From NCBI GenBank assembly GCA_964618895.1, contig CAZUDO010000056.1, positions 104,744 to 168,743 on the forward strand: DNA of 64,000 bases. The letters are read 5' to 3'. This DNA comes from an uncultured Candidatus Binatia bacterium (GTDB lineage: Bacteria > Desulfobacterota > Binatia > DP-6). Of the stretch, positions 26,718 to 49,281 are shown one piece after another. Both the position numbers and the translations under genes were made by a program. How positions within the stretch are numbered: position 1 is the stretch's first letter; each line of letters starts with the position of its first letter. Below the pieces are notes generated by a model. That model had not been told where the DNA came from. It ran no database searches and was given only the letters and a program-made list of their open reading frames with translations.

Positions 26718-26987
26718 TCACGACCCCGAGATGGGGTAATCCGGCTCGCCGACGCACCGTGCACAGCGGCACAGGTCGCGCACCTCGTCGATCAGCAGCA
26801 CCGTCTCGTGGGCGTCGCCCCAGTGGAAGAAGAGGCTCCGCTCGCCCAGCACGTCGACGCGCACGAGGTGCTCGGCCTCGGCCGGGAGCGGGGCATCCGG
26901 GGGGCGCGCCGTGCAGGCGTCGCAGGGGCACGCCGCGCGCAGATTGCGATAGGGCAGGATGCTGTCGTGGCGGTCGCCCCACGCCAC
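26718..26987 (-). CDS. DUF971-family small protein
   Basis: Two half-repeats, WGDRHDSILPYRNLRAACPCDAC and HWGDAHETVLLIDEVRDLCRCARC, matching the W-DGH...LR..CPCA.C signature. The frame stays open for about 30 more codons upstream (...IERLSEVGRYALGVAWGD), so a non-ATG start further 5' is likely. Confidence 0.5.
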   Translation of the reverse strand: MAWGDRHDSILPYRNLRAACPCDACTARPPDAPLPAEAEHLVRVDVLGERSLFFHWGDAHETVLLIDEVRDLCRCARCVGEPDYPISGS

Positions 26988-27069: not shown

Positions 27070-27855
27070 CTATCCGAGCATGATCATGCCGCCGTCGACG
27101 ACCAGCGTCTGACCCGTCATGAGGTCGGAGTCGGCGGATGCGAGGAACACGGCCGTGCCGGTGAGATCCTCGGGTTGCAGGGGCTTGCGAAGGGCGCTGA
27201 ACATCACGAGCGAACTGGCCAGCTCTTCGGGCACGATCTTCCGCGTGGCTTCCGTCATCGTCACACCGGGGGCGATCGCGTTCACGTTGATGCCCCAGGG
27301 CCCGAGGGCTCCGGCCATGTACTTGGTGAGCCCGGCGATGCCGATTTTGGCGACACTGTAGTGGAACGGCGGCATCGGCTTGTCCGCATCCTCGGTGTCG
27401 ACCAGGCCGACGTTGCCCAGGTACGCGGCCGTCGACGACTGGTGGATGATCTTGCCCGCGCGCTGGCGCTTCATGTGGCGCTCCACGGCGCGGCTCATGA
27501 GCCAGGCCCCGGTGAGGTTCACCGACAGCACACGGTTGAAGTAGGCGAGCGACGTCTGCTCGCGGTCGAGGTCGTAGTAGATGGCGGCGTTGTTCACCAG
27601 GATGTCGATGCGCCCGAAGCGGTCGATTGCCCGGGCGGCGAGCGCCTGTGTGCTCGCCTCGTCGGCCACGTCGACGGGCGCCGCCAGTGCGTCGGGGCCG
27701 AGCGCGCGACATTCCCCCGCCACGGCTTCGGCCTCGGGGTGGCGGATATCGGCCACGACCACGCGCGCCCCCTCGCGGGCGAAGCGCAGGGCGTAGGCTC
27801 GTCCGATCCCCTGAGCCGCGCCGGTAATGATCGCCACCCGGTCGTGCAGACGCAC
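27070..27855 (-). CDS. SDR-family oxidoreductase
   Basis: TGAAQGIGRA Rossmann motif, NNAAI, and the catalytic YSVAK tetrad region. Confidence 0.9.
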   Translation of the reverse strand: MRLHDRVAIITGAAQGIGRAYALRFAREGARVVVADIRHPEAEAVAGECRALGPDALAAPVDVADEASTQALAARAIDRFGRIDILVNNAAIYYDLDREQTSLAYFNRVLSVNLTGAWLMSRAVERHMKRQRAGKIIHQSSTAAYLGNVGLVDTEDADKPMPPFHYSVAKIGIAGLTKYMAGALGPWGINVNAIAPGVTMTEATRKIVPEELASSLVMFSALRKPLQPEDLTGTAVFLASADSDLMTGQTLVVDGGMIMLG

Positions 27856-28279: not shown

Positions 28280-28993
28280 ATGGCCGCCATGGTGCAACGG
28301 GTACGGACGGGACGCAAGCGCGTGCTGGCACGGGCCGTGCCCCGCACGCCCCGGGCGGAGGACGCGCCGCGCTCGCCCGGGCGGCCGGTCGGTGCCGATG
28401 GCGACCGCACGCGCGAGCGCATTCTCGAGAAGGCGATCGAGACGTTCGCCGACTTCGGCTTCGCCGGCGCATCGGTGCGCGACATCGCGCGCAAGGCGCG
28501 CATCCGGGTGTCGTCCCTGTACCACTACTTCCCCTCCAAGGCCGCCCTCTACCTCGCCGTTGAGGAGCGCATCGCGCAGCAGATCCGCGAGATCGCACTG
28601 TCGTCGGTCACGAAAGAGGCCGACCTGCGCGCGATGGTGCGCGACTCGGTCGGGCGCCTGTTCGATTTCTACCTCGAACGTCCGGCGTACGTGCGCCTCG
28701 GCTACCGCTTCCATCTGGACGGCGAACGGCGACCGGGCGGGTCGGAGCGCATCTTCGAGCGCTGGGTCGGCTTCATGGAAGCGCTCATGAAGCCGGCCGA
28801 AACGCAGGGCATCCTGAAACCGATCGACCCACCGCTCCTGATGGCTTCGGTCGAGGGGCTGCTCGCCTCGCACCTGACCAACGACGCCCTCTACCGCACC
28901 TTCTACGGCACCAGCCTCGACGACCCCGCCACCGCGGCGCGCGTGCGCGAGCACGTGATCCAGATGGTGCTGCGGGCGGTCGGCCTCGACTGA
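28280..28993 (+). CDS. TetR-family transcriptional regulator
   Basis: HTH FGFAGASVRDIARKARIRVSSLYHYFPSKAALY, about 237 aa; paralogous to the TetR at 45030. Confidence 0.85.
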   Translation: MAAMVQRVRTGRKRVLARAVPRTPRAEDAPRSPGRPVGADGDRTRERILEKAIETFADFGFAGASVRDIARKARIRVSSLYHYFPSKAALYLAVEERIAQQIREIALSSVTKEADLRAMVRDSVGRLFDFYLERPAYVRLGYRFHLDGERRPGGSERIFERWVGFMEALMKPAETQGILKPIDPPLLMASVEGLLASHLTNDALYRTFYGTSLDDPATAARVREHVIQMVLRAVGLD

Positions 28994-29149
28994 GTCGTGC
29001 GTGCGCTCTGAATCTATCGAACGGTCGATCGAAGTTCATCCCCCGCCGCGCGCGTCCGTGCCGGCGCTCGATGCGGGTGTTCCGCTTGACTCCCCGGGGC
29101 CGCTCGGCCATGCAGATGCCCGGCTCGCTGCGCTCAGGACGAATCACTG

Positions 29150-29602
29150 ATGCCGTCGAAAGACATGATTGGCCGGGTGCTGTCGACCGGCAGTGCCACC
29201 GTCACCGCCGAGAGCATCGCCGCGTTCGCGCGGGCGCTCGGTGATCCCGACCCGCTCTATCTCGACCCGCAGGCCGCACGCCGGGGGTTGTTCGGGTCCA
29301 TCGTCGCGCCGCCGACGTACCCGATCGCCTTCATGGTGCAGGCGATGGCGGGCGGGATGGACACCTTCCTCGAGCTTGGCCTCGACTTCATGACGCTCGT
29401 GCACGGCGAGCAGGAGTTCGAATACCGGCGCCCGATCCGTGCTGGCGAGACGTTGACGCTCACCGGCCGCATCGCCGACGTCTACGACAAGACGGGCGGC
29501 AGCGGCACGCTGGACTTCGTCGTGCTCGAGACCGAGGCGCGCGATCCGGAGGGCGAGGTGGTGTTCTTCTCGCGCAATACGCTCATCTCCCGGAGGACAT
29601 GA
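29150..29602 (+). CDS. MaoC-like hydratase, N-terminal-type hotdog subunit (ChsH1/HadA-like)
   Basis: A 150-aa hotdog fold (FARALGDPDPLYLDPQAAR...VHGEQEFEY) lacking the catalytic D/H motif, as in non-catalytic partner subunits; the stop overlaps the next gene's start. Confidence 0.8.
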   Translation: MPSKDMIGRVLSTGSATVTAESIAAFARALGDPDPLYLDPQAARRGLFGSIVAPPTYPIAFMVQAMAGGMDTFLELGLDFMTLVHGEQEFEYRRPIRAGETLTLTGRIADVYDKTGGSGTLDFVVLETEARDPEGEVVFFSRNTLISRRT

Positions 29603-30027
29603 TGCCCGCGCTCGATGCCAAGACGGTTGCGGTCGGCCAGGAGCTTCCGCCGCTGCAGAAGGGGCCGATCACCCGCGACGACCTGAAGGCCTACGCCGCG
29701 GCGTCGGGGGATCCCAATCCGATCCACATCGACGAGGAGTTCGCCAAGAACGCCGGCTACGCCGGCGTGTTCGCCCACGGCATGCTGTCGATGGGCTACC
29801 TGGGACAGTTCCTCGTCCAGGCCGCCAGCCTCGCGGGCGTGCGCCGCTTCCGCACCCGCTTCGCCAAGCTCACCTGGCCGGGCGACGTGATCACCTGTCG
29901 CGGGGCGGTCACGGCGATCCGGGACGAGGGCAGCGTGCGTCTCGTCGAGTGCGACATCTGGACCGAGAACCAGGACGGCGAGAAGAAGCTCACCGGGAGC
30001 GCGGTGCTCGCCCTGCCGCGCGGGTAG
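29599..30027 (+). CDS. MaoC-family (R)-specific enoyl-CoA hydratase, catalytic subunit
   Basis: SGDPNPIHIDEEFAKNAGYAGVFAHGML, the canonical MaoC dehydratase active-site motif; 142 aa. Confidence 0.85.
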   Translation: MMPALDAKTVAVGQELPPLQKGPITRDDLKAYAAASGDPNPIHIDEEFAKNAGYAGVFAHGMLSMGYLGQFLVQAASLAGVRRFRTRFAKLTWPGDVITCRGAVTAIRDEGSVRLVECDIWTENQDGEKKLTGSAVLALPRG

Positions 30028-30035
30028 TCGACCGC

Positions 30036-31196
30036 ATGGGTGACGCCACGCGGCTACGCGACCGCTACGCGATCGCGGGGATCGGCCTGTCGCGCTTCGG
30101 GAAGCTCCCCGGGACGAGCGCCATGGGCTTCACGCTCGAGGCCGCCAAGAACGCGATCGACGACTGCGGCATCTCGCGCGATGCGATCGACGGCGTGCTC
30201 GCGCTCATGCCGGCCGTCATGGGTGAGCAGCACGGGTGGGCGTCCCGGGTGGCGGCGTTCCTCGGCATCACGCCGTCCTACTGCGCCACCATGGACATGG
30301 GCGGCGCGACCGCCATCGGCATGATCCAGACCGCCGCGATGGCGATCGAGGCCGGCTTCTGCTCCGCGGTCCTGTGCGCGTTCGCGTGCCAGAACAACCC
30401 GCAAGGCGTGATCCCCATGCTCTTCGGGTCGCCGTACGCCATCCCGTACGGCGACGTGGGTGCGATCACCTTCATGGGGCACGTTGCCCGACGGCAGATG
30501 CACGAGTACGGGCTGACCAGCCGGCACTACGGCCATGTCGCGGTCACCTGGCGGGCGCACGCGGCCACCAATCCGCTCGCCCAGAAGCGCGAGCCGATCA
30601 CGCTGGACGACCACCAGAACTCCAAGATCATCAACGATCCCCTGCGGCTCCTCGACTGCTGCCTGGTCACCGACGGCGGCGGCGCGGTGATCGTGACCAG
30701 CGCCGGGCGGGCCCGCGACCTGCGCCAGCGGCCGGCCCTGATCGCGGGGCTCGGCCAGATTCATTCGTCGGAGATCATTCGTCCGTACGATACCGGGCGC
30801 GGCGGGGGACGCGAGGCTGCCGAGGCGGCGTACCGGATGGCGGGCTGCGCCGCCGGCGACATCGATGTGGTACAGCTCTACGACGGCTTCACGCCGCTGG
30901 TGGTGCACGAGCTGGTGGCGTACGGGTTCGCCACCTGGGACGACGTCGGGAGCCTGCTGGAGAGCGGGGCGTTACGGCACGGGGGGCGGCTGCCGAGCAA
31001 CACCGCCGGCGGCCTGCTCTCGGAAGGCCACCTCTCCGGGTTCGGTCACGTCGCGGAGGCCGTGCGCCAGGTGCGCGGCACGTCGCGTTGCCAGGTCCCG
31101 GGCGTGGCGCTGTCCATGGTCACCGGCTACGGAGGCGCTCCACACGAGTCGCCGCCGACGGTGGCGTACACGGTGGCGATCCTGCGGGGAGGGTGA
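30036..31196 (+). CDS. SCP-x/Ltp2-type thiolase-like protein (non-canonical thiolase/aldolase)
   Basis: A 386-aa thiolase fold (YAIAGIGLSRFGKLPG..., C-terminal TAGGLLSEGHLSGFGHVAEAVRQVRG) without the classic Cys-His-Cys thiolase triad context, as in Ltp2-type lipid-transfer proteins. Confidence 0.8.
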   Translation: MGDATRLRDRYAIAGIGLSRFGKLPGTSAMGFTLEAAKNAIDDCGISRDAIDGVLALMPAVMGEQHGWASRVAAFLGITPSYCATMDMGGATAIGMIQTAAMAIEAGFCSAVLCAFACQNNPQGVIPMLFGSPYAIPYGDVGAITFMGHVARRQMHEYGLTSRHYGHVAVTWRAHAATNPLAQKREPITLDDHQNSKIINDPLRLLDCCLVTDGGGAVIVTSAGRARDLRQRPALIAGLGQIHSSEIIRPYDTGRGGGREAAEAAYRMAGCAAGDIDVVQLYDGFTPLVVHELVAYGFATWDDVGSLLESGALRHGGRLPSNTAGGLLSEGHLSGFGHVAEAVRQVRGTSRCQVPGVALSMVTGYGGAPHESPPTVAYTVAILRGG

Positions 31197-31198
31197 GG

Positions 31199-32047
31199 AT
31201 GATGGTGACGACACGCGACCTCGACGTCGACGGCATCCGGCTGCACGTGGCGGAGGCAGGGGAAGGCCCGGCACTGGTGCTCCTCCACGGCCTGTCGGCC
31301 ACGCACGCCAACTGGGAGCACACCATTCCGGCGTTCGCCGACCGCTGGCGCGTGATCGCGCCGGACCTGCCCGGGCACGGCCGGTCGGCCAAGCCGGATG
31401 CGCCGTACAGCATCGACTTCTATGCCGGCGTGATCCGGAGCCTCGGGCGCGCCCTCGGCGTGCACGAGGCGGTGGTGGTCGGGAACTCGCTCGGGGGGCA
31501 GATCGCGATCGAGCTGGCGCTGTCCTACCCGACGTGGACGCGCGCCCTGGTGCTCGCCGCGCCGGCGGGAAGCTTCGGGCCGCTGCGTGTCCTCGGCCCG
31601 GTGCTGGGGGTGGTCACGCCGCCGGCGGTGCTCCGCTTCAGTCTGCCGCGGACGCTCGAACGCTGCTTCTACGACCACGCGCATCCGGCGCTCGACATGC
31701 GCCGGCGTATTCTGGCCGAACGGCTCGCCGCGGCGGACTTCCCCGACTTCGCCCGCGCGGTGTCGCGGTCGATCACAGGCGCGCTGCGCGGGAGCGGTCA
31801 GCCCCTGGAGCGTCTGACGCAGCCGACGCTCCTGGTCTGGGGTCGCGACGATCGCACGCTGCCGCTCTGGAACAGCCGATGGTTCCTCCGCGCCGTTCCG
31901 CACGCCCGCTTCGTGGCGCTGGAGCGCTGCGGGCACCTGCCGATGCTCGAACACGCGAGTCACTTCAATCGCCTGATGGCGGAGTTCCTGTGCGCCGTGG
32001 CGGCGGCCCCCCTGCCGGGGGCACGGCGCGCCAGCGGGGACACCTGA
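31199..32047 (+). CDS. Alpha/beta-fold hydrolase
   Basis: Nucleophile elbow GNSLGG, the HGxP-type motif LLHGLSATHANW, and C-terminal catalytic His in ERCGHLPMLE. Confidence 0.85.
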   Translation: MMVTTRDLDVDGIRLHVAEAGEGPALVLLHGLSATHANWEHTIPAFADRWRVIAPDLPGHGRSAKPDAPYSIDFYAGVIRSLGRALGVHEAVVVGNSLGGQIAIELALSYPTWTRALVLAAPAGSFGPLRVLGPVLGVVTPPAVLRFSLPRTLERCFYDHAHPALDMRRRILAERLAAADFPDFARAVSRSITGALRGSGQPLERLTQPTLLVWGRDDRTLPLWNSRWFLRAVPHARFVALERCGHLPMLEHASHFNRLMAEFLCAVAAAPLPGARRASGDT

Positions 32048-32457
32048 TGTTCGTCATCGAGAAGCCGATGCCCGCCGTCACCGAGGACGGCGCGCCGTAC
32101 TGGGAGGGCTGCCGCCAGGGCGTGCTGCGCGCGCAGCGCTGCACGGCGTGCCGGCACGTACGCTGGCCGCCGAGCGTGCTGTGCCCGAAGTGTCTGGCCG
32201 ACGGCACCGAGTGGATCGCGCTGTCGGGCCGCGGGGCCATCTATTCGTTCATCGTCGTACACCGGCCGCAACATCCGGCGTTCTTCGCCGACGCGCCCTA
32301 CAACGTCGCCATCGTCGAGCTGGCCGAGGGCATCCGGCTGCACGCCAGCATCGTCGACTGTCCGAACGAGGCCCTCCAGGTCGGGATGCCGGTCGAGGTC
32401 GTCTTCGACAAGGTGAACGACGAGGTGACGCTGCCTCGCTTCCGGCCCCGGCGGTAG
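32047..32457 (+). CDS. DUF35 protein (Zn-ribbon plus OB-fold; thiolase/aldolase partner subunit)
   Basis: CTACRHVRWPPSVLCPKCL rubredoxin-like C4 ribbon followed by an OB-fold (GRGAIYSFIVVH...); 136 aa; its ATG overlaps the hydrolase stop. Confidence 0.8.
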   Translation: MFVIEKPMPAVTEDGAPYWEGCRQGVLRAQRCTACRHVRWPPSVLCPKCLADGTEWIALSGRGAIYSFIVVHRPQHPAFFADAPYNVAIVELAEGIRLHASIVDCPNEALQVGMPVEVVFDKVNDEVTLPRFRPRR

Positions 32458-32474: not shown

Positions 32475-34775
32475 GTGTCGCGCCGCCCGGTCCTCGCCAT
32501 CTTCACCCTCTCGGGGGCGGCGGGGCTCGTCTATCAGGTGATCTGGGCGCGCCAGCTCGGCCTCGTCTTCGGCAACACCACCGCGTCGGTCACCATCGTC
32601 CTGGCGGCCTTCATGGCAGGGCTCGCGCTCGGGGCCGAGTGGGCGGGACGGGTGCTCGTCCGGCGGGCGAACCCGCTCCGGGTGTACGCCGTCCTCGAGG
32701 CGGCCATCGGCCTGTACGCCCTGGCCTTCGGCCCGCTGGTGAGCGGCCTCGAGACGCTCTACCCGCATCTCCTGAGCGACACCGCCTCGCCCGTCGTGCT
32801 GACGCTGGTGCGCTCCGTGGTCGCCTTCGGACTCGTGCTCCTGCCGACCACCTGCATGGGCGCCACCCTGCCGCTGACGACCGAGTATCTGCACCGGCTC
32901 GCGCTTGCCCATACCGACTGGAACGCCGGACGACTCTACGCCGCCAACACCCTCGGGTCGGCGCTCGGGTCGGTGGCCAGCGGGTTCGTGCTGATCGAGC
33001 TGGTGGGGATCGCCAACACGACGCGGATTGCTGCCGGCTTCAACGTGGTCGTGGGACTGCTCGGCTGGTGGCTCGCGCGCGGCCTCGCGCCGGCGAGCAC
33101 CCCGGCGACGCCCGCCGCCCCGGCGGCCGGCCAGCGGACTCTGCTCCTCCTGTTCGCGATCACAGGGGCGCTCGCGCTCGCCGGGGAGGTGCTGTGGACG
33201 CGCGCACTCACGCTGCTGCTCGGGAGCTCGACGTACGCCTTCAGCGGCATCCTGGTCGTGTACCTGGTCGGCATCGCATTCGGGAGCTGGGTTGCGGCCG
33301 GGATGGTTCGCCGGCTCGCCGCGCCCGAGCGATTCATCCCGCTCGCGATCCTGGGGGCCGGTGCGTGGCATGCCTTCGCCGTGACGCTGTTCGCCCCCCT
33401 GCACGCCCTGGTGCTCGGCCTGCTGGCGGCGACGCTGCAACCGATGTCGCCGGCCCAGTTCTACGCCCGTGCCGTTGCCACCCTGGTCGCCGTGCTCGGG
33501 GTGATGGTGCCGCCGGCGGCGCTGAGCGGGGCGCTGTTCCCGCTCGTCACCCGACTGCTCGAGGGCGACGCGGGCGATCGCGGCGCGCCCATCGCGCGCG
33601 CCTACACCTGGAACACGGTGGGCGCGATCGTCGGCTCGCTGGTCGGGGGCTTCGCCATCGCGCCGTTCTTCGTGCACTTCCATGCCATCGACGTGCTCGC
33701 GCTCTGCTTCCTCGGGGCCGCGCTCTGCGCCCTCGGGGTGATCGGCTGGCGAGCCTTCCCGATCGTGACCGGCGTGACGGTCGTGGGGGCGCTGGCGGTG
33801 ACGGCCCTCTCGGTGCAGCGGCTGCAGCGCCCGGACGCGTTCGTCACCCTCTACCGCCAGCGGCGACCCGCCTACGAGGTGCGCAGCCACGAGCCGGGCC
33901 TGCAGGGCATCACGACGGTGGCGTGGGACCGGGGCAAGCCCGAGCAGTCCGCCCAGCTGCTGGTGAACGGCGTCGGCATGACGGTGAAGGCGTTCGCCAC
34001 CAAGGCAATGGCGCACCTCCCCATCATCGCCCACGGCGCGGCCGAGGACGTGCTCGTGATCTGCTTCGGGATGGGGACGACGTTCCGCTCGGCGCTCACC
34101 CACGGCGGGCGTGTCGACGTGGTGGAGCTCACCCCCGGGGTATTCGGCGCCTTCGATGCGTTCTACGCCGATGCGGCCGAGGTCCGCCAGAACCCGCGCG
34201 GCCGCATGATCGTGAACGACGGGCGCAATTTCCTGCTCCTCACCGACAAACGCTACGACGTGATCACGCTCGATCCTCCGCCGCCCATCGATGCCGCCGG
34301 CGTGAGTACCCTGTATACGCGCGAGTTCCTGGAGCTCATGCGCGCCCACCTCGAGCCGGGGGGCATCGTCGCGCACTGGCTGCCGCCGCTCGGGCGGGGC
34401 GGGGGGCTGTCGGACATCGGCGTGCTCGACATGCTGGCGGCAACGTTCCTGGACGTGTTCCCGCATGTCCGGGTGCTGGTGAGTCAGCCGTTCATGAACC
34501 GATCGGGGTTCCATCTCCTCGGGTCGGACGCGCCGATCGCGCTCGATCCCGAGCGCTTGACGCGTGCCCTCGAGAATCCCGCCGTCAAGCGCGACATGAT
34601 GGAGTTCGGATGGGACCCGCTGGTGCCCGAGCGCTTCTTCTTCGAGGTCAACCTCCACCGTGACCTGGCGGCCAAGAAGACCCTGCTCACGGACGATCGC
34701 CCGCTCCTCGAGTTCAACCTGATCCGCAACCTGCGTCTGGGGCTCGCGCCCGCCATGATCCGCGTCGCGCCGTGA
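32475..34775 (+). CDS. Fused polytopic membrane (MFS-like) / spermidine-synthase-like aminopropyltransferase protein
   Basis: N-terminal half with about 12 transmembrane segments; C-terminal PABS-like domain (VLVICFGMGTTF...VVELTPGV...VNDGRNFL...YDVITLDPPPP); GTG start chosen; about 766 aa. Confidence 0.75.
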   Translation: MSRRPVLAIFTLSGAAGLVYQVIWARQLGLVFGNTTASVTIVLAAFMAGLALGAEWAGRVLVRRANPLRVYAVLEAAIGLYALAFGPLVSGLETLYPHLLSDTASPVVLTLVRSVVAFGLVLLPTTCMGATLPLTTEYLHRLALAHTDWNAGRLYAANTLGSALGSVASGFVLIELVGIANTTRIAAGFNVVVGLLGWWLARGLAPASTPATPAAPAAGQRTLLLLFAITGALALAGEVLWTRALTLLLGSSTYAFSGILVVYLVGIAFGSWVAAGMVRRLAAPERFIPLAILGAGAWHAFAVTLFAPLHALVLGLLAATLQPMSPAQFYARAVATLVAVLGVMVPPAALSGALFPLVTRLLEGDAGDRGAPIARAYTWNTVGAIVGSLVGGFAIAPFFVHFHAIDVLALCFLGAALCALGVIGWRAFPIVTGVTVVGALAVTALSVQRLQRPDAFVTLYRQRRPAYEVRSHEPGLQGITTVAWDRGKPEQSAQLLVNGVGMTVKAFATKAMAHLPIIAHGAAEDVLVICFGMGTTFRSALTHGGRVDVVELTPGVFGAFDAFYADAAEVRQNPRGRMIVNDGRNFLLLTDKRYDVITLDPPPPIDAAGVSTLYTREFLELMRAHLEPGGIVAHWLPPLGRGGGLSDIGVLDMLAATFLDVFPHVRVLVSQPFMNRSGFHLLGSDAPIALDPERLTRALENPAVKRDMMEFGWDPLVPERFFFEVNLHRDLAAKKTLLTDDRPLLEFNLIRNLRLGLAPAMIRVAP

Positions 34776-34822: not shown

Positions 34823-36622
34823 GTGCAGAGCGCCTCGCGATCGAAGCGCGTCCGGCGGGCCACGCGCCTGGACCCCATCGTCACCGAGATCATTCTCGGC
34901 GCGTTCGAGACCATCTGCTACGAGATGGCGACGCACGTGAGCCTCACGGCCACGACGCCCATCCTGAACCAGTCGAACGAGCGCAACGCCACCATCCTGG
35001 ACGGCACCGGGCGGCTGGCTGCGCTGTCGGTCGGCATTCCGCAGTTCATGCTGTCGTCGACCCTGCCGGTGCGGTTCGCGGTCGACTTCTTCGGGCCGGA
35101 CGGCCTCTTCGACGGCGACGTGTTGCTCGCCAACGACCCGTACCACGGCGGCGGGCACCTGCCGGACTACAACGTGTTCGCGCCCGTCTTCCACGACGGC
35201 GCGTGCGTCCTCATCGCGTCCATCCAGTGCCACCACGCCGACACGGGGGGCGGCGCACCGGGGGGCTACAATGTGAACGCCCTCGACATCTGGGCCGAGG
35301 GCGTGCGCTTCCCCGCGGTCAAGATCTACGAGCGGGGCGTGCTGCGACGCGACGTCGAGTACATGATCGCGGCCAACAACCGTACCCCCACGTTCCTGGG
35401 CGATCTGCGCGCGCAGGTGGGGGCGGCCCAGCTGGGCGTGCAGCGCCTGACAGACATCCTGGCGCGCTTCGGGACCGACACCGTCGCTGGGGCCGTGCAG
35501 AGCATCATCGCCTACGCCAAGCGCCGCTTCCGCGACGAGGTGGCGCGCTGGCCGGATGGCGTCTACGAATCCGACACCTACGTCGACCACGACCCGCACG
35601 GCACGCCGGACATCCACGTCCACTGCAAAGTGACGGTGCGGGGGAGCGCGCTCACGCTCGACTTCACCGGCTCCGACGACCGCCCCGACATCCAGGCGTA
35701 CTCCACCTTCGGCAACACGCGCGGCTACGTGGTGGCGCAGCTGGCCTGCATGATGGACCCGAGCATCCCGAAAAACGAGGGCTTCTTCGACTCGATCGAC
35801 TTGATCGTGCCGAAGGGCTGCTGCCTCAACCCGCCCGACGGCCGCTCGGTGGCGGCGGGCACGCATCATCCCGGCACCGAGGTCGGCGAGGCGGTCGCCA
35901 AGGCGCTCGAACGGGTGGTGCCCGAGCGCAGCTGCCCGCAGGTCTACAAGATGGGCATGCCGACGGTCATCTTCGGTACCAACCCGCGCACCGGGAAGCT
36001 GTTCATCGACCACTCGGTCGACACCTTCGCGGCCTACTGCGGGGCGGTGAAGGGCCAGGACGGGTGGGGTGGCATGAACGTCTCGTTCGGCAACCTGATC
36101 CGCGCCACCGCCGAGATCAACGAGTCGATCTTTCCGGTCCGGCACCTGGCACGCGACTACGAGACCGACAGCGGCGGCGCCGGCGCCAACCGCGGCAACT
36201 GCGGCAGCCTCTACCGCAAGCAGATGCTGGTGCGGTCGACCATCTACACCTACGTGGTCGGCAAGCGGTACCCCATGCCAGGGATCGCCGGCGGTCACCC
36301 CGGCTCCGCCAACCGCCTCCTCGTCCGCGCCGGCGGCGCGCACGCCTTCGAGGTCGGCGATAAGGCCCAATACATCGAGCACGCCGCCGGCGAGTCCTAC
36401 GAGTACCACTACGGCGGCGGCGGCGGCTGGGGCGACCCCCTTGCCCGTCCCCCCGCGCGCGTCCTCGACGACGTCCTCGACGAGTACATCTCCATCGAAT
36501 CCGCCCGCCGCGACTACGGCGTCGTCCTGACCGGTACCCTCGAAGACCTCACCCTCGCCCTCGACGAACCAGCCACCACCCGCCTCCGCGCCGAGATGCA
36601 GGCCCACCGGGAGCGCGCGTGA
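34823..36622 (+). CDS. hyuB: Hydantoinase B / 5-oxoprolinase B / acetone-carboxylase alpha-like subunit
   Basis: DPIVTEIILGAFETICYEMATHV N-terminus and conserved HyuB blocks (NDPYHGGGHLPD, GDKAQYIEHAAGESYEYHYGGGGGWGDP); 599 aa. Confidence 0.85.
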   Translation: MQSASRSKRVRRATRLDPIVTEIILGAFETICYEMATHVSLTATTPILNQSNERNATILDGTGRLAALSVGIPQFMLSSTLPVRFAVDFFGPDGLFDGDVLLANDPYHGGGHLPDYNVFAPVFHDGACVLIASIQCHHADTGGGAPGGYNVNALDIWAEGVRFPAVKIYERGVLRRDVEYMIAANNRTPTFLGDLRAQVGAAQLGVQRLTDILARFGTDTVAGAVQSIIAYAKRRFRDEVARWPDGVYESDTYVDHDPHGTPDIHVHCKVTVRGSALTLDFTGSDDRPDIQAYSTFGNTRGYVVAQLACMMDPSIPKNEGFFDSIDLIVPKGCCLNPPDGRSVAAGTHHPGTEVGEAVAKALERVVPERSCPQVYKMGMPTVIFGTNPRTGKLFIDHSVDTFAAYCGAVKGQDGWGGMNVSFGNLIRATAEINESIFPVRHLARDYETDSGGAGANRGNCGSLYRKQMLVRSTIYTYVVGKRYPMPGIAGGHPGSANRLLVRAGGAHAFEVGDKAQYIEHAAGESYEYHYGGGGGWGDPLARPPARVLDDVLDEYISIESARRDYGVVLTGTLEDLTLALDEPATTRLRAEMQAHRERA

Positions 36623-36796: not shown

Positions 36797-37207
36797 ATGC
36801 GCGCCCACACCGAGTATCTGTGGTTCACGACCGGTGCCCGCCGCGAGCTGGTGAACATCACGGAGCGCCTCACCGCCATCGTCGAGAAGGCCCGCGTCGC
36901 CGAGGGCCTGTGCCTGGTGTCCGCCATGCACATCACGGCCGCGATCTGGGTGAACGACGAGGAGCCCGGCCTGAAGCAAGATCTCCTGGCGTGGCTCGAG
37001 CGCCTCGCTCCCGCCGGCGACTACCAGCACCACCAGACGGGCGAGGACAACGCCGACGCGCATCTGAAGCGCACGCTCATCCACCATCAGGTGATCCTGC
37101 CGGTGACGAAGGGCGCGCTCGACCTCGGGCCCTGGGAGCAGGTCTTCTATGCCGAGTTCGACGGGCAGCGGAAGAAACGCGTGGTCGTCAAAATCCTGGG
37201 GGAGTGA
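36797..37207 (+). CDS. yjbQ: YjbQ/UPF0047-family protein (secondary thiamine-phosphate synthase-like)
   Basis: 136 aa; [34 protein letters not shown]...[20 protein letters not shown] matches UPF0047; ATG 36797 preferred over an in-frame low-complexity extension that runs through the hairpin. Confidence 0.8.
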
Positions 37208-37211
37208 ACGC

Positions 37212-39278
37212 GTGCGCACGGGCTATCGCATCGGTATCGACGTCGGGGGTACGTTCACGGACCTGGTACTGGTCGCCCCGGACGGCCGCCTGGTCATCGA
37301 CAAGCACCTGACCACGCCTGCCGACCAGTCTGCCGGCGTGCTCGGCGGCATCGGGCAGCTCGCCGCGCGCGAGGGGAAGACGCCGGACGCCCTCCTCGCC
37401 GCCACCACGCTCATCGTGCACGGCACCACCACCGCCGACAACACGATGATCGAGATGTCGGGGGCCACCACCGGGCTGATCACGTCCGACGGCCATCGCG
37501 ACGAGATCGAGATCCGCCGCGGCTTCAAGGAGAACATCTGGGACCCGGCGCAGCCGCCCCCGCCGGCGATCTGTCCGCGCCGCCGCCGCTACGGGGTGCC
37601 GGAGCGGCTCGACTTCGAGGGCAACGTCATTACCCCGCTCGACGAGGAGGCCGTCCGTCGCGCGTGCCGGCGGATGAAGCTGCAGGGCGTCGATTCGCTC
37701 GCGATCGTGTTCCTGTTCTCGTTCGTGGACTCGGCCCACGAGCGGCGCGCGCGAGAGATCGCTCGCGAAGAGCTGCCGGGGGTGATGCTGTCGCTGTCCC
37801 ACGAGGTGATGCCGTCGGCACCGGAGTTCGAGCGTACGTCGACCACGTTGGTGAACGCGTACGTGGGACCCAGGATCGAGCGCTATCTCGCGTGCCTCGA
37901 CGAGCGGCTGCGCGGCGCGGGGTTCCGGGGCGAGCTGCTCATCATGCAATCGAACGGCGGCGTCATGCCGGGCGGCTACGTGGCGCAGAAGGCGGTGGCG
38001 GTGATGGGTTCGGGCCCAGCCGGTGGGGTGATGGGGGCGACGGCGGTCGCCGGCGCGGTCAAGATCACCGACTTCATCTCCGTCGACATGGGCGGGACCA
38101 GCTACGACGTGTGCCTGGTGCGCGGCGGGACCCCGGAGGTGAAGACGGGCTGGAACTGGCACCATCGCTACCTGATCGGGCTGCCGATGGTCGAGGTGCA
38201 GTCGGTGGGTGCCGGCGGCGGCTCGATCGCGCGCGTGGAGTCGGGAGCGCTCAAGGTGGGGCCGCAGAGCGCGGGCGCGCAACCCGGGCCGGTGTGTTAC
38301 GGGCGCGGCGGTGTGGAGCCGACGGTCACCGATGCCAACGTGACCCTCGGCTATCTCAATCCCGCCAGCTTCTGCGGCGGCACGATGCAGCTCGACATCG
38401 AGGGCGCGCACGCGGCCATCGCGACCCGGGTGGCGAAGCCGCTCGGACTGTCCGTGATCGAGGCGGCCGAGGGCATCTTCCGGTTGGTGAACGCCAACAT
38501 GGCGAACGCCGTCCGGCGCATCTCCGCCGGGCGCGGCATCGACCCGCGCCCGCTCACGCTGGTCGTCTTCGGCGGCAACGGGCCGGTGCACGCCGGCATG
38601 CAGGCCGCCGAGCTCGGCATCCGCCGCATCCTCGTCCCCAAGCTGTCGCCGGCGTTCTCGGCGCTCGGCCTCCTGCTCACCGACCACGTTGTCGACGAGA
38701 TGCGCTCGTACATCAGCCCGGTCTCCCAGATCGACCTGAGGCGCGTGAATGCCCTCCTGGCCGACATGGAGACGGCGGCCACGGCGGCGCTCGGGAGCGG
38801 GAACGGCAAGCGCCGGGTGCGCCTCGAGCGCATGGCCGCCCTCTGCTACCCGGGCCAGACCTTCGACATGCCGGTGCCGCTCCCGGCGCGCGGCGGGCCG
38901 GTGACCGCGCGCGGGCTGGCCGACACCGTCGAGCGTTTCCACCGCCTGCATGAAGAACTGCACACGTATGCCAGCCGCGACCAGGAGCCGATCCTGCGCG
39001 GCCTGCGTCTGAAGGCCGTGGCGGTGGAAGTGAAACCCGCGTTGCCACGCATCGCCCGCAAGGGTCGGGGGAATGCCCGCGTCGGAGCCCGCAAGGCCTA
39101 TTTCAACGGCCGGGTCGTTGCCACGCCCGTGTACGATGGGCCGCAGCTCACACCGGGCCGGACCATCCTCGGCCCCGCCATCGTCGAGGAGCCGTTCACG
39201 AGCATCGTGGTGTACCCGGGGCAGCGTGCCAGCGTCGACCCGTTCGGCAACTACGCGATCACCGTCGGGCGCGGGTAG
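37212..39278 (+). CDS. hyuA: Hydantoinase A / oxoprolinase A / acetone-carboxylase beta-like subunit
   Basis: IGIDVGGTFTDLVL N-terminal ASKHA motif; HGTTTADN; SVDMGGTSYDV second ATPase motif; GTG start 4 bp after the yjbQ stop; 688 aa. Confidence 0.85.
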   Translation: MRTGYRIGIDVGGTFTDLVLVAPDGRLVIDKHLTTPADQSAGVLGGIGQLAAREGKTPDALLAATTLIVHGTTTADNTMIEMSGATTGLITSDGHRDEIEIRRGFKENIWDPAQPPPPAICPRRRRYGVPERLDFEGNVITPLDEEAVRRACRRMKLQGVDSLAIVFLFSFVDSAHERRAREIAREELPGVMLSLSHEVMPSAPEFERTSTTLVNAYVGPRIERYLACLDERLRGAGFRGELLIMQSNGGVMPGGYVAQKAVAVMGSGPAGGVMGATAVAGAVKITDFISVDMGGTSYDVCLVRGGTPEVKTGWNWHHRYLIGLPMVEVQSVGAGGGSIARVESGALKVGPQSAGAQPGPVCYGRGGVEPTVTDANVTLGYLNPASFCGGTMQLDIEGAHAAIATRVAKPLGLSVIEAAEGIFRLVNANMANAVRRISAGRGIDPRPLTLVVFGGNGPVHAGMQAAELGIRRILVPKLSPAFSALGLLLTDHVVDEMRSYISPVSQIDLRRVNALLADMETAATAALGSGNGKRRVRLERMAALCYPGQTFDMPVPLPARGGPVTARGLADTVERFHRLHEELHTYASRDQEPILRGLRLKAVAVEVKPALPRIARKGRGNARVGARKAYFNGRVVATPVYDGPQLTPGRTILGPAIVEEPFTSIVVYPGQRASVDPFGNYAITVGRG

Positions 39279-39291: not shown

Positions 39292-40101
39292 TCACTTCCC
39301 CGTCCACACCGGCCGCCGTTTCTCGACGAACGCCCGTTGCGCCTCGCGCGCGTCGTCGGTGCGGCGGAGGGGGCGGCCGAGCTCTTCCTGGCGGCGGTAG
39401 GCGTCGGGGAGCGGCAGCGGGAGCAGCTCGCGGACGCCGCGGCGGGTCTCGCGCACGGCGAGCGGGGCGTTGGCGGCGATGGCGTCGGCGGCGGCCAGCG
39501 CGGTGGCGAGGAGACGGTCCGGCGGGACGACGGCGTTCACCAGCCCGATCTCGAGCGCCCGCTGGGCGTCGATCGGGCGCGCTGTGAGGAGCAGGTCGTG
39601 GGCGTGCACCCAGCCGATCTGGCGCGGCAGGAGGACGGTCGCATTGCCGGTCGGGTAGAGGCCGAGGGCAACCTCTTCGAATGCGAAGGTGGCATGCGGG
39701 ACGGCGTAGCGGATCTCGGCGGCCAGCAGGAGGTCGAAGCCGGCTGCGCGTGCGTGGCCGTTGACGGCGCACACCAGCGGCGTGTTCAGGTCGAAGCCAG
39801 CGAGGAGTGCGGTGGCGACGCTGCGCAGCCCGGCGAACGTCTCCTCGTCGACACGCTCGCCGCGGGCGAAGCGCTGCGAGGCGGGAATAGTACTCTTCAT
39901 GTCCATCCCGCCGCAGAACACCCGCGCCCCCGCGCCGGTGAGGACGGCGCAGCGGATGTCATCGTCGGCGGCGATGCGCCGCCAGGCGTCGGCGAGCGCG
40001 CACAGGGTGGGGGGATCCAGCGCGTTCGCCTGCGCGGGCCGGTCGATCGTGACCACCGCGACGTGGGGGTGGTCGCCCGGAAGCTCGAGCCGTGCCGCCA
40101 T
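39292..40101 (-). CDS. Enoyl-CoA hydratase/isomerase (crotonase) family protein
   Basis: ALDPPTLCALADAWRRIAADDDIRCAVLTGAGARVFCGGMDM and ...FEEVALGLYPTGNATVLLPRQIG, the oxyanion-hole helices. Confidence 0.85.
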   Translation of the reverse strand: MAARLELPGDHPHVAVVTIDRPAQANALDPPTLCALADAWRRIAADDDIRCAVLTGAGARVFCGGMDMKSTIPASQRFARGERVDEETFAGLRSVATALLAGFDLNTPLVCAVNGHARAAGFDLLLAAEIRYAVPHATFAFEEVALGLYPTGNATVLLPRQIGWVHAHDLLLTARPIDAQRALEIGLVNAVVPPDRLLATALAAADAIAANAPLAVRETRRGVRELLPLPLPDAYRRQEELGRPLRRTDDAREAQRAFVEKRRPVWTGK

Positions 40102-45029: not shown

Positions 45030-45752
45030 GTGCCGGTCGTCGCCGCCAGCCGACGGCCGCGCGAGGCGAGCGCCACGGCGCCACCCACGCGCGAGCTGAT
45101 CCTCGACACCGCCGAGCGGTTGTTCTCCGCCCGTGGCGTGGACGGGGTGGCGGTGCGCGACCTCGCCCGCGAGATGGGCATCACGGCGTCGAGCCTCTAC
45201 AACCATTTCCCCGGCAAGCAGGCGCTGTACGATGCCGTGCTCGAGCGCGGCCTCGGGCCGATCGTGAGCGTGGTGGCGGAAGCCTGGCACCCCGGGGTGG
45301 TGCGCCCGGAGCAGGTGCAGGCGACGCTCGACCGGCTGACCGAGCACCTGGCGCGTCATCCGCACCTGGCGCGCCTGCTGCAGCGGGCCCTGCTCGAAGA
45401 CGCGGGTGCCGTGCAGACGCTCCTCGACCGGTGGCTCAGCTCGCTCTATCGCGAGGGCATCGCCGTCGTGCGCCGGATGGCGCGCGACGCCGGCTGGGAG
45501 GAGGAGCAGGTGCCGCATCTGGGCATCGCCCTCTTCGGGATGATCTTCGCCTACTTCACCAACCCCGCCGCGCTCCGGCGGCTCACCGGCTGGCGCGACG
45601 AGCCCCTGTCGGCGCACGGCCTGCAGGTGCAGCAACGTTTCCTGGCCGAAGCAGTGCTGCGCCTGCTCGGTCCACGACCGCAGGGCGCGGCGGCCCGCGC
45701 CAAACCCCCCACGCCAACCGGCGCACGACGACGGAGGTCCCCCCATGGCTGA
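45030..45752 (+). CDS. TetR-family transcriptional regulator
   Basis: HTH RGVDGVAVRDLAREMGITASSLYNHFPGKQALY; paralogous to the TetR at 28280; 3' end overlaps the next gene. Confidence 0.85.
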   Translation: MPVVAASRRPREASATAPPTRELILDTAERLFSARGVDGVAVRDLAREMGITASSLYNHFPGKQALYDAVLERGLGPIVSVVAEAWHPGVVRPEQVQATLDRLTEHLARHPHLARLLQRALLEDAGAVQTLLDRWLSSLYREGIAVVRRMARDAGWEEEQVPHLGIALFGMIFAYFTNPAALRRLTGWRDEPLSAHGLQVQQRFLAEAVLRLLGPRPQGAAARAKPPTPTGARRRRSPHG

Positions 45753-46863
45753 ACACGGCACAATCACCGACGAGGGTATCGAGAAGCTGAAGACCCGCAT
45801 CGGGAAGGGCTTCGAGGGGCGCCGCCCGTGGCGCACGGAGGTGACGCGCGACGCCATCTATCACCTGGCGTTCGCGATCGGCGACCTGAACCCGCTCTTC
45901 CTCGACGAGGACTACGCCAAGCGGACGCGCTGGGGCACGCTCATCGCCCCGCACATCATGATCCAGAGCATGGACACCCTGCGCGCCGTTGGCCACAGCG
46001 GGTTGCCCGAAGGGCTGCCCGGCGTGCACTCCATCTGGACGGGCTCGCGCTACGAGTGGAAGCGCCCGCTCAAACTGGGCGACCGCATCTCGGCCAAGTC
46101 GTGCCTGAAGGCGATCGCCGAGAAGCAGAGCACCTTCGGCGGGGGCCGGTCGCTCTACCAGACCTACGAGGCGGTGTACCACGATCAGCACGGCGAGTAC
46201 GTCGGCGTGCGCAACGACACCTGGATCCGCATCGAACGGGCGGCCACGCGCGAGAAGAAGAAGTACGGCGACATCCAGCTGGCACAGTGGAAGCCCGAGG
46301 ACATCGCCCGCTTCCAGGAGGACTACCGCCGCCAGACGCGCGTCGCCGAGCGCTGGTGGGACGACGTGCAGGTGGGCGACACGATGGGCTCCCCCATCAT
46401 CAAGGGACCGCTCACGCCCACGGCCGAGATCGCCTTCGAGTCGTTCTTCGGCGTCTATCTGGTCGGCAACATCGTCGCCATGCGCTTGTACGAGAAGCAC
46501 CCCGCGCTCATGATCCCGAACGAGCAGGGCGTACCGGAGCCGCCGCAGCGGGTGCACTGGGACAACGCCTTCACGCAGCGCCTGCTCGGGCTCCCCGGCG
46601 CCTACGACCTCGGGCCGGAACGCTGTGCCTGGCTCATCCAGGGCGCGACCGACTGGATGGGCGACAACGGCCACCTGGCGACCATCGAGGCGCGCTACCA
46701 CAAGTTCAACTACATGGGCGACGTGACCTGGATCCGTGGCAAGGTCGCCGACAAGTTCGAGCGCGACGGCACGGCCATGGTGCGCTGCGCGATCGAGACC
46801 GTGAACCACCGCGACGAGGTATCGGCGTCGGCGACGGTCGAGATCGAGCTGCCGCGGCGCTAG
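45745..46863 (+). CDS. Double-hotdog MaoC-like acyl dehydratase (fused N- and C-terminal hotdog domains)
   Basis: A 372-aa protein with two hotdog halves (IYHLAFAIGDLNPLFLDEDYAK... and ...GNIVAMRLYEKHPALMIPNEQGVPE...); resembles fused HadAB/ChsH-type hydratases. Confidence 0.8.
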   Translation: MAEHGTITDEGIEKLKTRIGKGFEGRRPWRTEVTRDAIYHLAFAIGDLNPLFLDEDYAKRTRWGTLIAPHIMIQSMDTLRAVGHSGLPEGLPGVHSIWTGSRYEWKRPLKLGDRISAKSCLKAIAEKQSTFGGGRSLYQTYEAVYHDQHGEYVGVRNDTWIRIERAATREKKKYGDIQLAQWKPEDIARFQEDYRRQTRVAERWWDDVQVGDTMGSPIIKGPLTPTAEIAFESFFGVYLVGNIVAMRLYEKHPALMIPNEQGVPEPPQRVHWDNAFTQRLLGLPGAYDLGPERCAWLIQGATDWMGDNGHLATIEARYHKFNYMGDVTWIRGKVADKFERDGTAMVRCAIETVNHRDEVSASATVEIELPRR

Positions 46864-49124: not shown

Positions 49125-49281
49125 GTTTGCCCGTCACCGCCCGGCTCGAGGGCCGGAAATCTGCGGGATGACGAAAGATTTCCATTGACTACGTGTGCGG
49201 CAGTCATGGTAACCATCCCGGGTGGCCCGGCGGGTTGTACCTGGCAGGTGCGACCTGCGGGCGATGGACAGGGAGATACCC

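Follow-up and report, generated by a model that had tools for sequence, protein, structure and literature searches.

To our knowledge, all thiolase-fold retro-aldolases characterised so far act on steroid side chains; they come from Actinomycetota and Proteobacteria and follow two catalytic solutions. Here we describe a six-gene locus from an uncultured soil bacterium of Candidatus Binatia, which encodes a TetR regulator, two MaoC-type hotdog proteins, a thiolase-fold protein (for brevity, the aldolase), an alpha/beta-fold serine hydrolase and a free-standing DUF35 protein. The locus lies in a 64-kb stretch of DNA with a G+C content of about 70% (the window), which was analysed through open reading frame (ORF) calls and Pfam scans. 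We propose, with a probability of about 0.6, that these genes form a conserved catabolic operon of Binatia, in which a hydratase would be coupled to a DUF35-assisted Tyr/His retro-aldolase acting on a probably lipid-like acyl-coenzyme A (acyl-CoA).

The steroid aldolase complexes are the best solved relatives of the aldolase and the DUF35 protein. In Ltp2, Tyr294 of a YDHF motif serves as the base, Tyr344 as the acid, and the oxyanion hole contains His296; in Sal, a YDCY motif supplies Tyr302 and Cys304, and Gln352 stands at the position of Tyr344 (Rolfe et al. 2025, PMC12329534). SCP2-thiolases carry an HDCF motif, and the aldolases have a Gly where the nucleophilic Cys was (PMC12329534). On the hydratase side, ChsH2 is an inert, steroid-binding subunit with a His-to-Tyr change and a fused DUF35, and ChsH1 is its catalytic partner (PMC11321319); Shy is a homodimer with a fused DUF35 and a Cys3His zinc site (PMC11321319, PMC12329534). 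An earlier note, made by reading the letters of this DNA, had likened the operon to ChsH1/ChsH2/Ltp2 and to Shy/Sal. Its composition is indeed of this hydratase and retro-aldolase kind, but the note's description of Shy/Sal as a system with a free DUF35 protein needs correction, since the DUF35 of Shy is fused (PMC11321319).

The thiolase-fold protein and its predicted partners

By sequence, the best match of the aldolase in the PDB is Ltp2 of Thermomonospora curvata, solved with the DUF35 domain of ChsH2 (6OK1_A, 2.3e-58), followed by 4U4E (8.8e-54) and then by Sal of Comamonas testosteroni (9MYR_A, 1.3e-37). True thiolases come after these, at 1e-29 or weaker. The ranking by fold agrees with this. 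With an AlphaFold model (predicted local distance difference test score, pLDDT, 82.7), Foldseek placed 6OK1_A first with a template modelling (TM) score of 0.82, the top three matches comprised Ltp2, Sal and, in third place, 4U4E, and true thiolases again came lower. The sole long low-confidence stretch of the model, with pLDDT below 50, covers residues 122-141 (window 30399-30458).

The catalytic residues set the protein apart from thiolases as well as from both described aldolases. Gly90 stands at the position of the nucleophile, aligned with the Gly of T. curvata Ltp2 and of C. testosteroni Sal, and Tyr282 of the sequence Tyr282-Asp-Gly284-Phe is aligned with Tyr294, the catalytic base of Ltp2. 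The column of Tyr344 is occupied by His332. This mapping is supported by the fact that the same alignment puts the Gln of Sal in the Tyr344 column, in line with the published assignment (PMC12329534). Both thiolase cysteines are thus absent, with Gly90 in place of the first and no Cys in the YDxF or C-terminal motif, and only the "GHP"-type His332 is retained. The oxyanion-hole residue of Ltp2 is not conserved either, being Gly284 in the window and Gly or Ala in 120 close orthologues, and its acid is replaced by His332. Likewise, the YDCY motif that defines Sal, together with its essential Cys304 and Gln352, gives way to YDGF and His332.

These patterns are stable across relatives. A Gly fills the nucleophile position in every close orthologue. 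The 120 close orthologues share the motif YD(G/A)F, and 108 of them carry the His332 motif (...GH), the remaining 12 having failed the search pattern. Sister lineages, by which we mean those with an aldolase 59-66% identical to that of the window (L012, L019, L020 and L021), are included in a set of 36 orthologues in which Gly89, Gly90, Tyr282, Asp283, Phe285, Asn322 and His332 are invariant. When 1.8 billion representatives were searched without a profile, 8247 relatives emerged. Among the 133 nearest full-length ones, the nucleophilic Cys occurs in none (nearly all have Gly, a few Ser or Ala) and the base Tyr is kept by almost all, the other two positions being highly variable.

In a neighbour-joining tree, the Binatia proteins, together with those of L012 and P0121, form a clade of their own, sister to a protein with YDCF and His, and apart from the clades of Ltp2 (39% identity), 4U4E (37%) and Sal (31%). 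The tree is rough and star-like, so the separateness of the clade is the only safe inference from it. The best NCBIfam model, the lipid-transfer protein PRK07855, gives 269.7 bits against a cut-off of 469, and no model reaches its cut-off. The suggestion that this is not a working thiolase is therefore upheld: the two cysteines are gone and the protein groups with Ltp2, Sal and the 4U4E-type Cys-less proteins, not with beta-ketothiolases. Its sequence places it in the cysteine-less, aldolase-type branch of the thiolase superfamily. An assignment as an orthologue of Ltp2 or of Sal was also considered and is ruled out by the motif positions, the tree placement and the NCBIfam cut-offs.

The DUF35 protein has a Cys4 zinc ribbon (CxxC...CxxC, with Cys32, Cys35, Cys46 and Cys49) and an OB fold, and both Pfam models score above cut-off. 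Its best PDB matches are the DUF35 domains that bind aldolases (6OK1_B, 3.1e-28; 9MYR_B, 7.2e-28), ahead of partners bound to thiolases or acyltransferases (6ESQ_E, 6.5e-16; BbsA, 3.5e-5; PhlB, 4.3e-4). In every locus with sequence at that place, the DUF35 gene adjoins the aldolase gene, directly or across the hydrolase gene. This adjacency and the match to 6OK1_B make the DUF35 protein the presumed partner of the aldolase. A related arrangement was seen in L017 (51-2180), where a thiolase-like gene 42% identical to the aldolase gene product, with YDGF and a Tyr at the Tyr344 position, lies between two DUF35 genes.

The two hotdog proteins look like an inert and a catalytic subunit. The first has the sequence GDPDPLY, in which Tyr37 replaces the catalytic His, the same change as in the inert ChsH2. 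The second, the MaoC subunit, carries the full hydratase-2 motif YAAASGDPNPIHIDEEFA (GDPNPIH) with Asp38 and His43. The nearest models of the first subunit are HadA and HadC, both missed by a wide margin, and the nearest structures of the second are the MaoC-like dehydratase 5I7N (4e-16) and HadB (7e-14). Matches of the pair to ChsH1 (4W78) and ChsH2 (4WNB) reach only about 2e-4. The Had equivalog models of NCBIfam score far under their cut-offs (HadA 57.5 against 180, HadB 63.9 against 203).

The triad of the hydrolase (Ser97, Asp218, His246) is invariant in the 36 orthologues, with Asn96 and Cys244 nearly so. HsaD is its best sequence match (4e-31), CumD, esterases and PlaF follow close behind, and BphD is matched too. 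Foldseek, given a model with pLDDT 90.9, put the phospholipase PlaF at the top and also returned HsaD, CumD, BphD, epoxide hydrolases and ABHD6, PlaF being as near in fold as HsaD, CumD and BphD. NCBIfam scores are low (HsaD 127 against a cut-off of 400, BphD 97 against 462), and the PcaD and AcoC models score similarly to HsaD. Several features of C-C hydrolases are retained, namely the Asn-Ser pair, equivalents of Arg190 and Cys263, and Arg175 aligned with Arg192 of HsaD. The GGG(P)G loop is missing (HGLSATH against HGGGPGA), as is an equivalent of Asn51, and GHL stands where GHW contains Trp266. In BphD, these are the residues of the dienoate-binding subsite. The evidence for a C-C hydrolase of the HsaD type thus leans negative. 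We treat the protein as a putative accessory ester, thioester or lactone hydrolase. Its gene is missing from L006, L011, L012 and L019-L022.

Organisation, conservation and surroundings of the operon

The six genes delineated in the earlier note were confirmed by ORFs, junctions and Pfam matches (Table 1), and public gene calls share the chosen starts of the aldolase (P0001, 386 aa) and the hydrolase (P0332, 282 aa) at 100% full-length identity. The five genes after TetR had been described as overlapping and translationally coupled. They are tightly packed, but only two of the four junctions truly overlap (ATGA between the hotdog genes, TGATG between the hydrolase and DUF35 genes), the others being gaps of 8 nt, between the MaoC hydratase and aldolase genes, and 2 nt. 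A spacer of 156 nt separates TetR from the first hydratase gene.

Table 1. Features of the operon and its neighbourhood; positions are those of the window.
Feature	Coordinates	Strand	Length	Pfam match or remark
Short-chain dehydrogenase/reductase (SDR)	27070-27855	-		adh_short_C2 3.5e-56; divergent from TetR
TetR regulator	28280-28993	+		TetR_N 1.1e-14; TetR_C_29 4.4e-9
Candidate operator	29016-29032			imperfect palindrome ATCGAACGGTCGATCGA in the TetR-operon spacer, read by hand
Promoter-like element	29086-29115	+		TTGACT-N17-CATGCA; 35-64 nt upstream of first hydratase gene
Predicted non-catalytic MaoC-type hotdog subunit	29150-29602	+	150 aa	FAS1_DH_region 9.8e-36; MaoC 2e-7
Predicted catalytic MaoC (R)-specific enoyl-CoA hydratase subunit	29599-30027	+	142 aa	MaoC_dehydratas 4.8e-21
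Thiolase-fold protein (aldolase)	30036-31196	+	386 aa	Thiolase_C_1 6e-29; Thiolase_N also matched
Alpha/beta-fold serine hydrolase	31199-32047	+	282 aa	Abhydrolase_1 2.6e-32
Free-standing DUF35 protein	32047-32457	+	136 aa	zf-ChsH2 3.3e-12; OB_ChsH2_C 3.7e-23
hyuB	34823-36622	+	599 aa	Pfam match
UPF0047	about 36797-37207	+		Pfam match
hyuA	about 37212-39278	+		Pfam match
Crotonase-family enoyl-CoA hydratase	39292-40101	-		ECH_1 4.6e-47

A scan with one genome per species returned 13 loci. Eleven of them, with 69-86% identity, are labelled Candidatus Binatia, Thermodesulfobacteriota or "delta proteobacterium", and the other two belong to Polyangiaceae (59%) and Actinomycetota (33%). The order MaoC-N, MaoC, thiolase-like, hydrolase, DUF35 is shared with seven Binatia assemblies (L001, L003-L005 and L007-L009), and the thiolase-like and DUF35 pair is present in all 13 loci; given this recurrence, the arrangement is not due to chance. 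Variants exist: L006 has no hydrolase gene, L010 and L011 are reduced to the thiolase-like and DUF35 genes, and L012 has a crotonase instead of the MaoC pair. Public metagenomes add more than 100 protein clusters with at least 71% identity to the aldolase.

The sister lineages place the aldolase among genes of acyl-CoA metabolism. In L021, one block consists of aldehyde dehydrogenase, crotonase, acyl-CoA dehydrogenase, AMP-ligase, aldolase and DUF35 genes, after which come an acyl-CoA dehydrogenase, an SDR, MaoC-N, MaoC and a true thiolase; L019 shares this core and has SCP2 in addition. In L012, the order is acyl-CoA dehydrogenase, divergent TetR, crotonase, aldolase, DUF35 and SCP2. L020 and the P0273 contig have hyuA-hyuB, CoA-transferase and SDR genes divergent from the side with TetR, aldolase and DUF35, the latter being followed by a DAGAT-like gene, a cytochrome P450 (P450) and a phosphoenolpyruvate-utilising enzyme. 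P450 genes occur in L007, L009, L020 and the P0273 contig, and in L007 and L009 they adjoin the operon. In addition, an MMPL transporter gene lies between TetR and the operon in L005, and L005 and L006 have genes for patatin-like lipases; in the Binatia relatives, such P450, MMPL or lipase genes are placed between TetR and the operon or next to them. The crotonases of the L012, L019 and L021 clusters are 40-42% identical to the crotonase of the window, which is a possible counterpart of theirs.

Because ligase, dehydrogenase, crotonase, aldehyde dehydrogenase, SCP2 and P450 genes accompany the aldolase in these lineages, a catabolic use is indicated. The contexts support a sequence of activation, dehydrogenation, hydration and aldol cleavage, and, in one lineage or more, an aldehyde product; a hydrophobic, lipid-like acid is the probable substrate.

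The contigs of more distant relatives, with 40-45% identity, were too short to inform on gene context. Two further observations concern single relatives. The Actinomycetota locus L013 (2650-14686) has a DUF35 gene and an Ltp-like gene with YDGF and an Arg at the Tyr344 position, surrounded by an AMP-ligase, GntR, two SDRs, a Rieske oxygenase and three amidohydrolases. Here a distant relative occurs in another setting, possibly that of aromatic or steroid-ring metabolism. In L020 (1-1160, minus strand), a 468-aa protein encoded directly after hyuA has weak KAS-III C-terminal and faint DUF35 OB-fold matches.

With regard to regulation, seven loci (L003 and L005-L009 among them) have TetR orthologues of 47-54% identity at a distance of 0.1-3.7 kb upstream of the hydratase genes, and it is this conserved proximity that suggests TetR control of the operon. 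Comparison of TetR with the PDB and NCBIfam gave no informative characterised relative. The imperfect palindrome of Table 1, not reported by the repeat finder, is the sole operator candidate in the window. A perfect palindrome, TCGGTCGTCCGACCGA, was seen in L008 (about 3590-3610) and L009 (about 7095-7115), after the promoter-like element and ahead of the first hydratase gene; it is a likely operator in those genomes and is absent from the window. In L003 and L005-L009, the orthologous gene is preceded by the pattern TTGAC(A/T)-N16-18-CAT(A/G)C. Its counterpart in the window falls below the threshold of a strict consensus scan, and repeat and promoter scans of the TetR-operon spacer returned nothing. 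Terminator prediction found none downstream of DUF35 in the stretch scanned (to 32700), and co-transcription with the four following genes of the same strand (a membrane protein, hyuB, UPF0047 and hyuA) is possible. The membrane protein (about 32475-34775, plus strand), between DUF35 and hyuB, is a multi-pass protein of 767 aa with a spermidine-synthase domain; it was found in none of the related loci.

On the other side, the SDR gene is a possible associated gene, for example for a 3-hydroxyacyl-CoA or alcohol dehydrogenase. Its orthologues (79-85% identity) lie near the operon in L005 and L009, and the SDR of L020 and the P0273 contig, also divergent from TetR, aldolase and DUF35, is only about 32% identical to it. 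Upstream of the SDR gene (26718-26987, minus strand) is a gene for an 89-aa protein with a GBBH-like N-terminal domain, which is 64% identical in L006.

The wider neighbourhood had been read as a degradation island. Pfam scans of the flanks speak otherwise: a type II/IV secretion ATPase, PPDK, recO, grpE-dnaK-dnaJ, a lipid A acyltransferase and a response regulator are found there, along with sugar-kinase genes, an ABC-2 transporter and Cys-rich repeat proteins. These housekeeping and unrelated genes rule out a catabolic island, and the region is ordinary chromosome. A second TetR followed by a 372-aa double-hotdog protein (45030-46863, plus strand) had been called paralogous to the operon genes. 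The proteins are only 26-29% identical to those of the operon, so the double hotdog is not a recent paralogue; in its first domain the His is replaced by Phe, and the second has no classical hydratase motif. Further downstream are two large proteins of 1077 and 897 aa (49222-55161, plus strand) with Cys-rich Disintegrin/DUF4215 repeats, the second with a GDSL lipase domain, and then a group (55164-63806) comprising a third TetR (minus strand), a luciferase-like monooxygenase, an aldehyde dehydrogenase, Amidohydro_3, Amidohydro_2, an isochorismatase and an SDR. No recurrence of orthologues of this group was seen in the related loci.

Proposed reaction and alternative readings

We suggest that the operon would shorten an acyl-CoA by hydration and retro-aldol cleavage instead of oxidation and thiolysis. 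First, the two hotdog proteins would form a heterodimer of the ChsH1-ChsH2 or HadAB type, in which one subunit supplies Asp38 and His43 and the inert Tyr37 subunit an enlarged pocket, and which would hydrate a bulky or branched 2-enoyl-CoA to the 3-hydroxyacyl-CoA. Second, the aldolase and the free DUF35 protein would form a complex like Ltp2-ChsH2(DUF35) and Sal-Shy(DUF35). Tyr282 could act as the base on the 3-hydroxyl, and breakage of the C-alpha/C-beta bond would yield acetyl- or propionyl-CoA and an aldehyde or ketone. His332, the ancestral histidine of the thiolase "GHP" motif, probably stabilises or protonates the acyl-CoA enolate and would take roles that in Ltp2 are divided between His296 and Tyr344. 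Third, the serine hydrolase may be a lineage-specific accessory that acts on an ester, thioester or lactone of the same pathway. TetR probably represses the operon until a pathway intermediate binds to it.

Several observations weigh against this proposal. Two of the three catalytic or oxyanion residues of Ltp2, His296 and Tyr344, are absent, and so is the essential Cys304 of Sal, which means that the chemistry could differ from a simple retro-aldol reaction. The hydratase pair is most similar to HadA and HadB, which are acyl carrier protein (ACP)-dependent, and neither an acyl-CoA dehydrogenase nor a CoA ligase is encoded in the window operon itself. Furthermore, in L019 and L021 the orthologous MaoC pair (48-52% identical) has an SDR and a true thiolase as its neighbours, and a crotonase is part of the gene block that ends with the aldolase. 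The MaoC pair may therefore not be the hydratase that feeds the aldolase; in Binatia, it is adjacency that suggests this assignment.

The more specific readings can be arranged by falling probability. The foremost, improbable as a whole, extends our proposal to a new retro-aldolase clade of Binatia and a few related uncultured lineages, in which the Tyr plus ancestral His enzyme (YD(G/A)F...GH), with a free DUF35 and a Had-like hydratase, and together with HyuAB or the hydrolase, would shorten beta-substituted lipids (isoprenoid, hopanoid or sterol-like) to acetyl-CoA and a carbonyl compound, which would be processed further. If this were true, Tyr/His would be a third catalytic solution beside Tyr/Tyr in Ltp2 and Tyr/Cys in Sal.

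Next comes C2 removal from beta-methyl-branched, isoprenoid-type acyl-CoAs, which we consider unlikely. Here a tertiary 3-hydroxy-3-methylacyl-CoA, which is not oxidisable, would be split into acetyl-CoA and a methyl ketone, and the ketone would then be processed by the ATP-dependent HyuAB or by a monooxygenase plus the hydrolase. In chemical terms, a fully substituted beta-carbon is where a retro-aldol step would be needed most, and the hyuAB genes accompany the aldolase-DUF35 pair in Binatia, directly after DUF35 in L003 and L005 and nearby in L010 and L011 as well as in the window, and again in the lineage of L020 and the P0273 contig. Between the window and L020, HyuB is 68% and HyuA 56% identical, similar to the aldolase (66%); the CoA-transferases and SDR beside HyuAB in L020 and a luciferase-like monooxygenase after DUF35 in L011 fit this scheme as well. 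However, the linkage in Binatia may be merely inherited gene order, and the aldehyde dehydrogenase that accompanies the aldolase in L021 implies an aldehyde, not a ketone. Acetone and acetophenone carboxylases have extended alpha subunits and gamma subunits; no gamma subunit gene for hyuAB was found in the window. CapA (caprolactamase) scores 640 bits against 358 for ApcC, and HyuB matches 7HK5 at 9e-71 against 7.5e-20 for acetone carboxylase, with 6YRA and N-methylhydantoinase also near. By this similarity to caprolactamase and N-methylhydantoinase, neither the earlier description of hyuAB as carboxylase-like nor a role as ketone carboxylase is supported. In sequence the pair resembles an ATP-dependent enzyme of the hydantoinase or lactamase type that is a recurrent neighbour of aldolase and DUF35 in two lineages.

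Also improbable is the reading to which the steroid comparison leads directly, a side-chain module for sterols, bile acids or polycyclic terpenoids that would be equivalent to ChsH1-ChsH2-Ltp2 (C3) or Shy-Sal (C5), with the hydrolase as an HsaD-like ring-cleavage enzyme. Apart from the solved steroid complexes, it can draw on the ChsH2-type His-to-Tyr change in the inert hotdog, on HsaD as the top sequence match of the hydrolase, on the SCP2 sterol-carrier domain after DUF35 in L012 and on the P450s beside the operon in L007 and L009. Other features argue against it. Where Ltp2 combines YDHF with Tyr and Sal combines YDCY with Gln, the active site here combines YD(G/A)F with His; the aldolase stands in its own clade with NCBIfam scores far under cut-offs, and the hotdog pair is nearer to HadA/HadB than to ChsH1/ChsH2. 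The hydrolase lacks the C-C hydrolase loop and the equivalents of Asn51 and Trp266, and its fold is equally near to a phospholipase and esterases. No steroid-nucleus families were found among the ORFs scanned in the 64-kb window, where Rieske oxygenase, extradiol dioxygenase, KstD-like, paired ChsE-type and cyp125 genes were likewise not found, and the Binatota literature makes no mention of the operon or of steroid catabolism. A steroid specificity is not supported. Nothing in the window supports a steroid substrate, and the operon does not establish steroid degradation outside the known phyla.

A good deal less probable is a CoA-dependent route, other than beta-oxidation, that would cleave the side chain of an aromatic or alicyclic acid, for example by converting 3-hydroxy-3-arylpropionyl-CoA to an aryl aldehyde and acetyl-CoA. 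Such a route would resemble ibuprofen degradation, for which an SCPx-like and DUF35 pair has reportedly been proposed. The gene series of L021, in which an aldehyde dehydrogenase comes before ligase, acyl-CoA dehydrogenase, crotonase, aldolase and DUF35, would suit it, as would the Rieske oxygenase and amidohydrolases around the distant L013 relative and the place of the hydrolase in a broad group with aromatic-pathway hydrolases and enol-lactonases. Yet no ring-hydroxylating or ring-cleaving genes lie near the Binatia operon, and its neighbours have a lipid flavour (MMPL, patatin, SCP2, P450s of the fatty-acid or macrolide type).

We are still more doubtful of a biosynthetic or lipid-remodelling role, in which a HadAB-like dehydratase and a thiolase-fold/DUF35 condensing unit would make an unusual lipid for export by MMPL. 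HadA, HadC and HadB are the best family matches of the hotdog pair, MMPL and a DAGAT-like acyltransferase occur in L005 and the P0273 contig, respectively, and free DUF35 proteins are known from biosynthetic thiolase/3-hydroxy-3-methylglutaryl-CoA (HMG-CoA) synthase and PhlABC complexes. Nevertheless, the Had scores are too low, Pfam scans of the window showed no ACP or ketosynthase genes near the operon, nor is there a reductase set, and the aldolase has no cysteine for a Claisen condensation; the sister clusters contain a ligase, acyl-CoA dehydrogenases, an aldehyde dehydrogenase and a true thiolase. Finally, an ordinary beta-ketothiolase that finishes normal beta-oxidation, as automated annotations (acetyl-CoA acetyltransferase or thiolase family protein) and the Thiolase_N and Thiolase_C_1 matches would have it, is ruled out for practical purposes by the loss of both catalytic cysteines and by the ranking of aldolases over true thiolases in sequence and fold.

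The hydratase and retro-aldolase proposal has implications in several fields. For enzymology, the operon is a test case for the repurposing of the thiolase scaffold. It also matters for annotation, because these genes are now named acetyl-CoA acetyltransferase. For ecology, it may help to show which recalcitrant lipids Binatia degrade in soils and sediments. The operon would extend the hydratase-aldolase machinery to a globally distributed, uncultured phylum, in which it is widespread.

Comparison with known systems

Compared to the ChsH1-ChsH2-Ltp2 system, known from the Mycobacterium tuberculosis igr operon and from the T. curvata complex 6OK1, the Binatia operon has several features in common. 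Both have one Asp/His MaoC subunit and one inert subunit with His changed to Tyr, a thiolase-fold protein with Gly for the nucleophilic Cys and a catalytic (here putative) Tyr in YDxF, and a DUF35 with a Cys4 zinc ribbon and an OB fold. However, the DUF35 of ChsH2 is the C-terminal domain of the inert subunit, whereas here it is encoded by a separate gene and the 150-aa inert subunit has none. The active site is YD(G/A)F plus His332 in place of YDHF plus Tyr344 in proteins 39% identical, the hydratase subunits are more HadA/HadB-like, and a serine hydrolase gene is inserted. Moreover, there is no ChsE1-ChsE2, cyp125 or steroid-nucleus gene nearby, and the host is Candidatus Binatia, not a member of the Actinomycetota.

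The Shy-Sal system of Comamonas testosteroni (Sal-Shy(DUF35), 9MYR) likewise joins a hydratase and an aldolase without the Cys nucleophile through DUF35, and the base Tyr is kept. Here, two separate hotdog genes and a free Cys4 DUF35 take the place of the fused homodimer, and Gly/Ala and His take the places of Cys304 (YDCY) and Gln352, in proteins of 31% identity and separate clades. In the bile-acid pathway, the aldehyde dehydrogenase Sad accompanies the aldolase, and an aldehyde dehydrogenase gene similarly accompanies the aldolase gene in sister loci of the window.

Other thiolase-fold and hotdog systems share parts of the design. The putative thiolase 4U4E of Sphaerobacter thermophilus, with no nucleophilic Cys, a YDSF motif and His at the Tyr344 position, is of the same "Tyr plus ancestral His" type, but is 37% identical and belongs to a different clade; it is uncharacterised and so is silent on the substrate. 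HadAB and HadBC of the mycobacterial type II fatty acid synthase (FAS-II) are also encoded by adjacent genes and form heterodimers of an inert and a catalytic single-hotdog MaoC subunit. They differ in that the scores are far under cut-offs, no FAS-II/ACP context is present, and the pair is linked here to an aldolase, with beta-oxidation genes in sister loci. The archaeal thiolase/HMG-CoA synthase (6ESQ), the benzoylsuccinyl-CoA thiolase BbsAB (7PXP) and PhlABC (5M3K) have a separate small DUF35 by a thiolase-fold gene as well, although theirs is Claisen-type or acyl-transfer chemistry and the DUF35 matches are weaker than those to the aldolase-bound domains. These systems need an active-site cysteine for catalysis; the structural match 9SKM is a C88S acyltransferase variant.

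Collectively, membership in the Ltp2, Sal and ChsH families fails on the defining residues, the architecture and the score thresholds, but in terms of mechanism the likeness to the hydratase-aldolase systems for steroid side chains is real. To these systems, the Binatia operon adds a third active-site pattern, a Tyr with the retained thiolase His, and it is also built differently, DUF35 being free, the hydratase pair Had-like and a hydrolase inserted.

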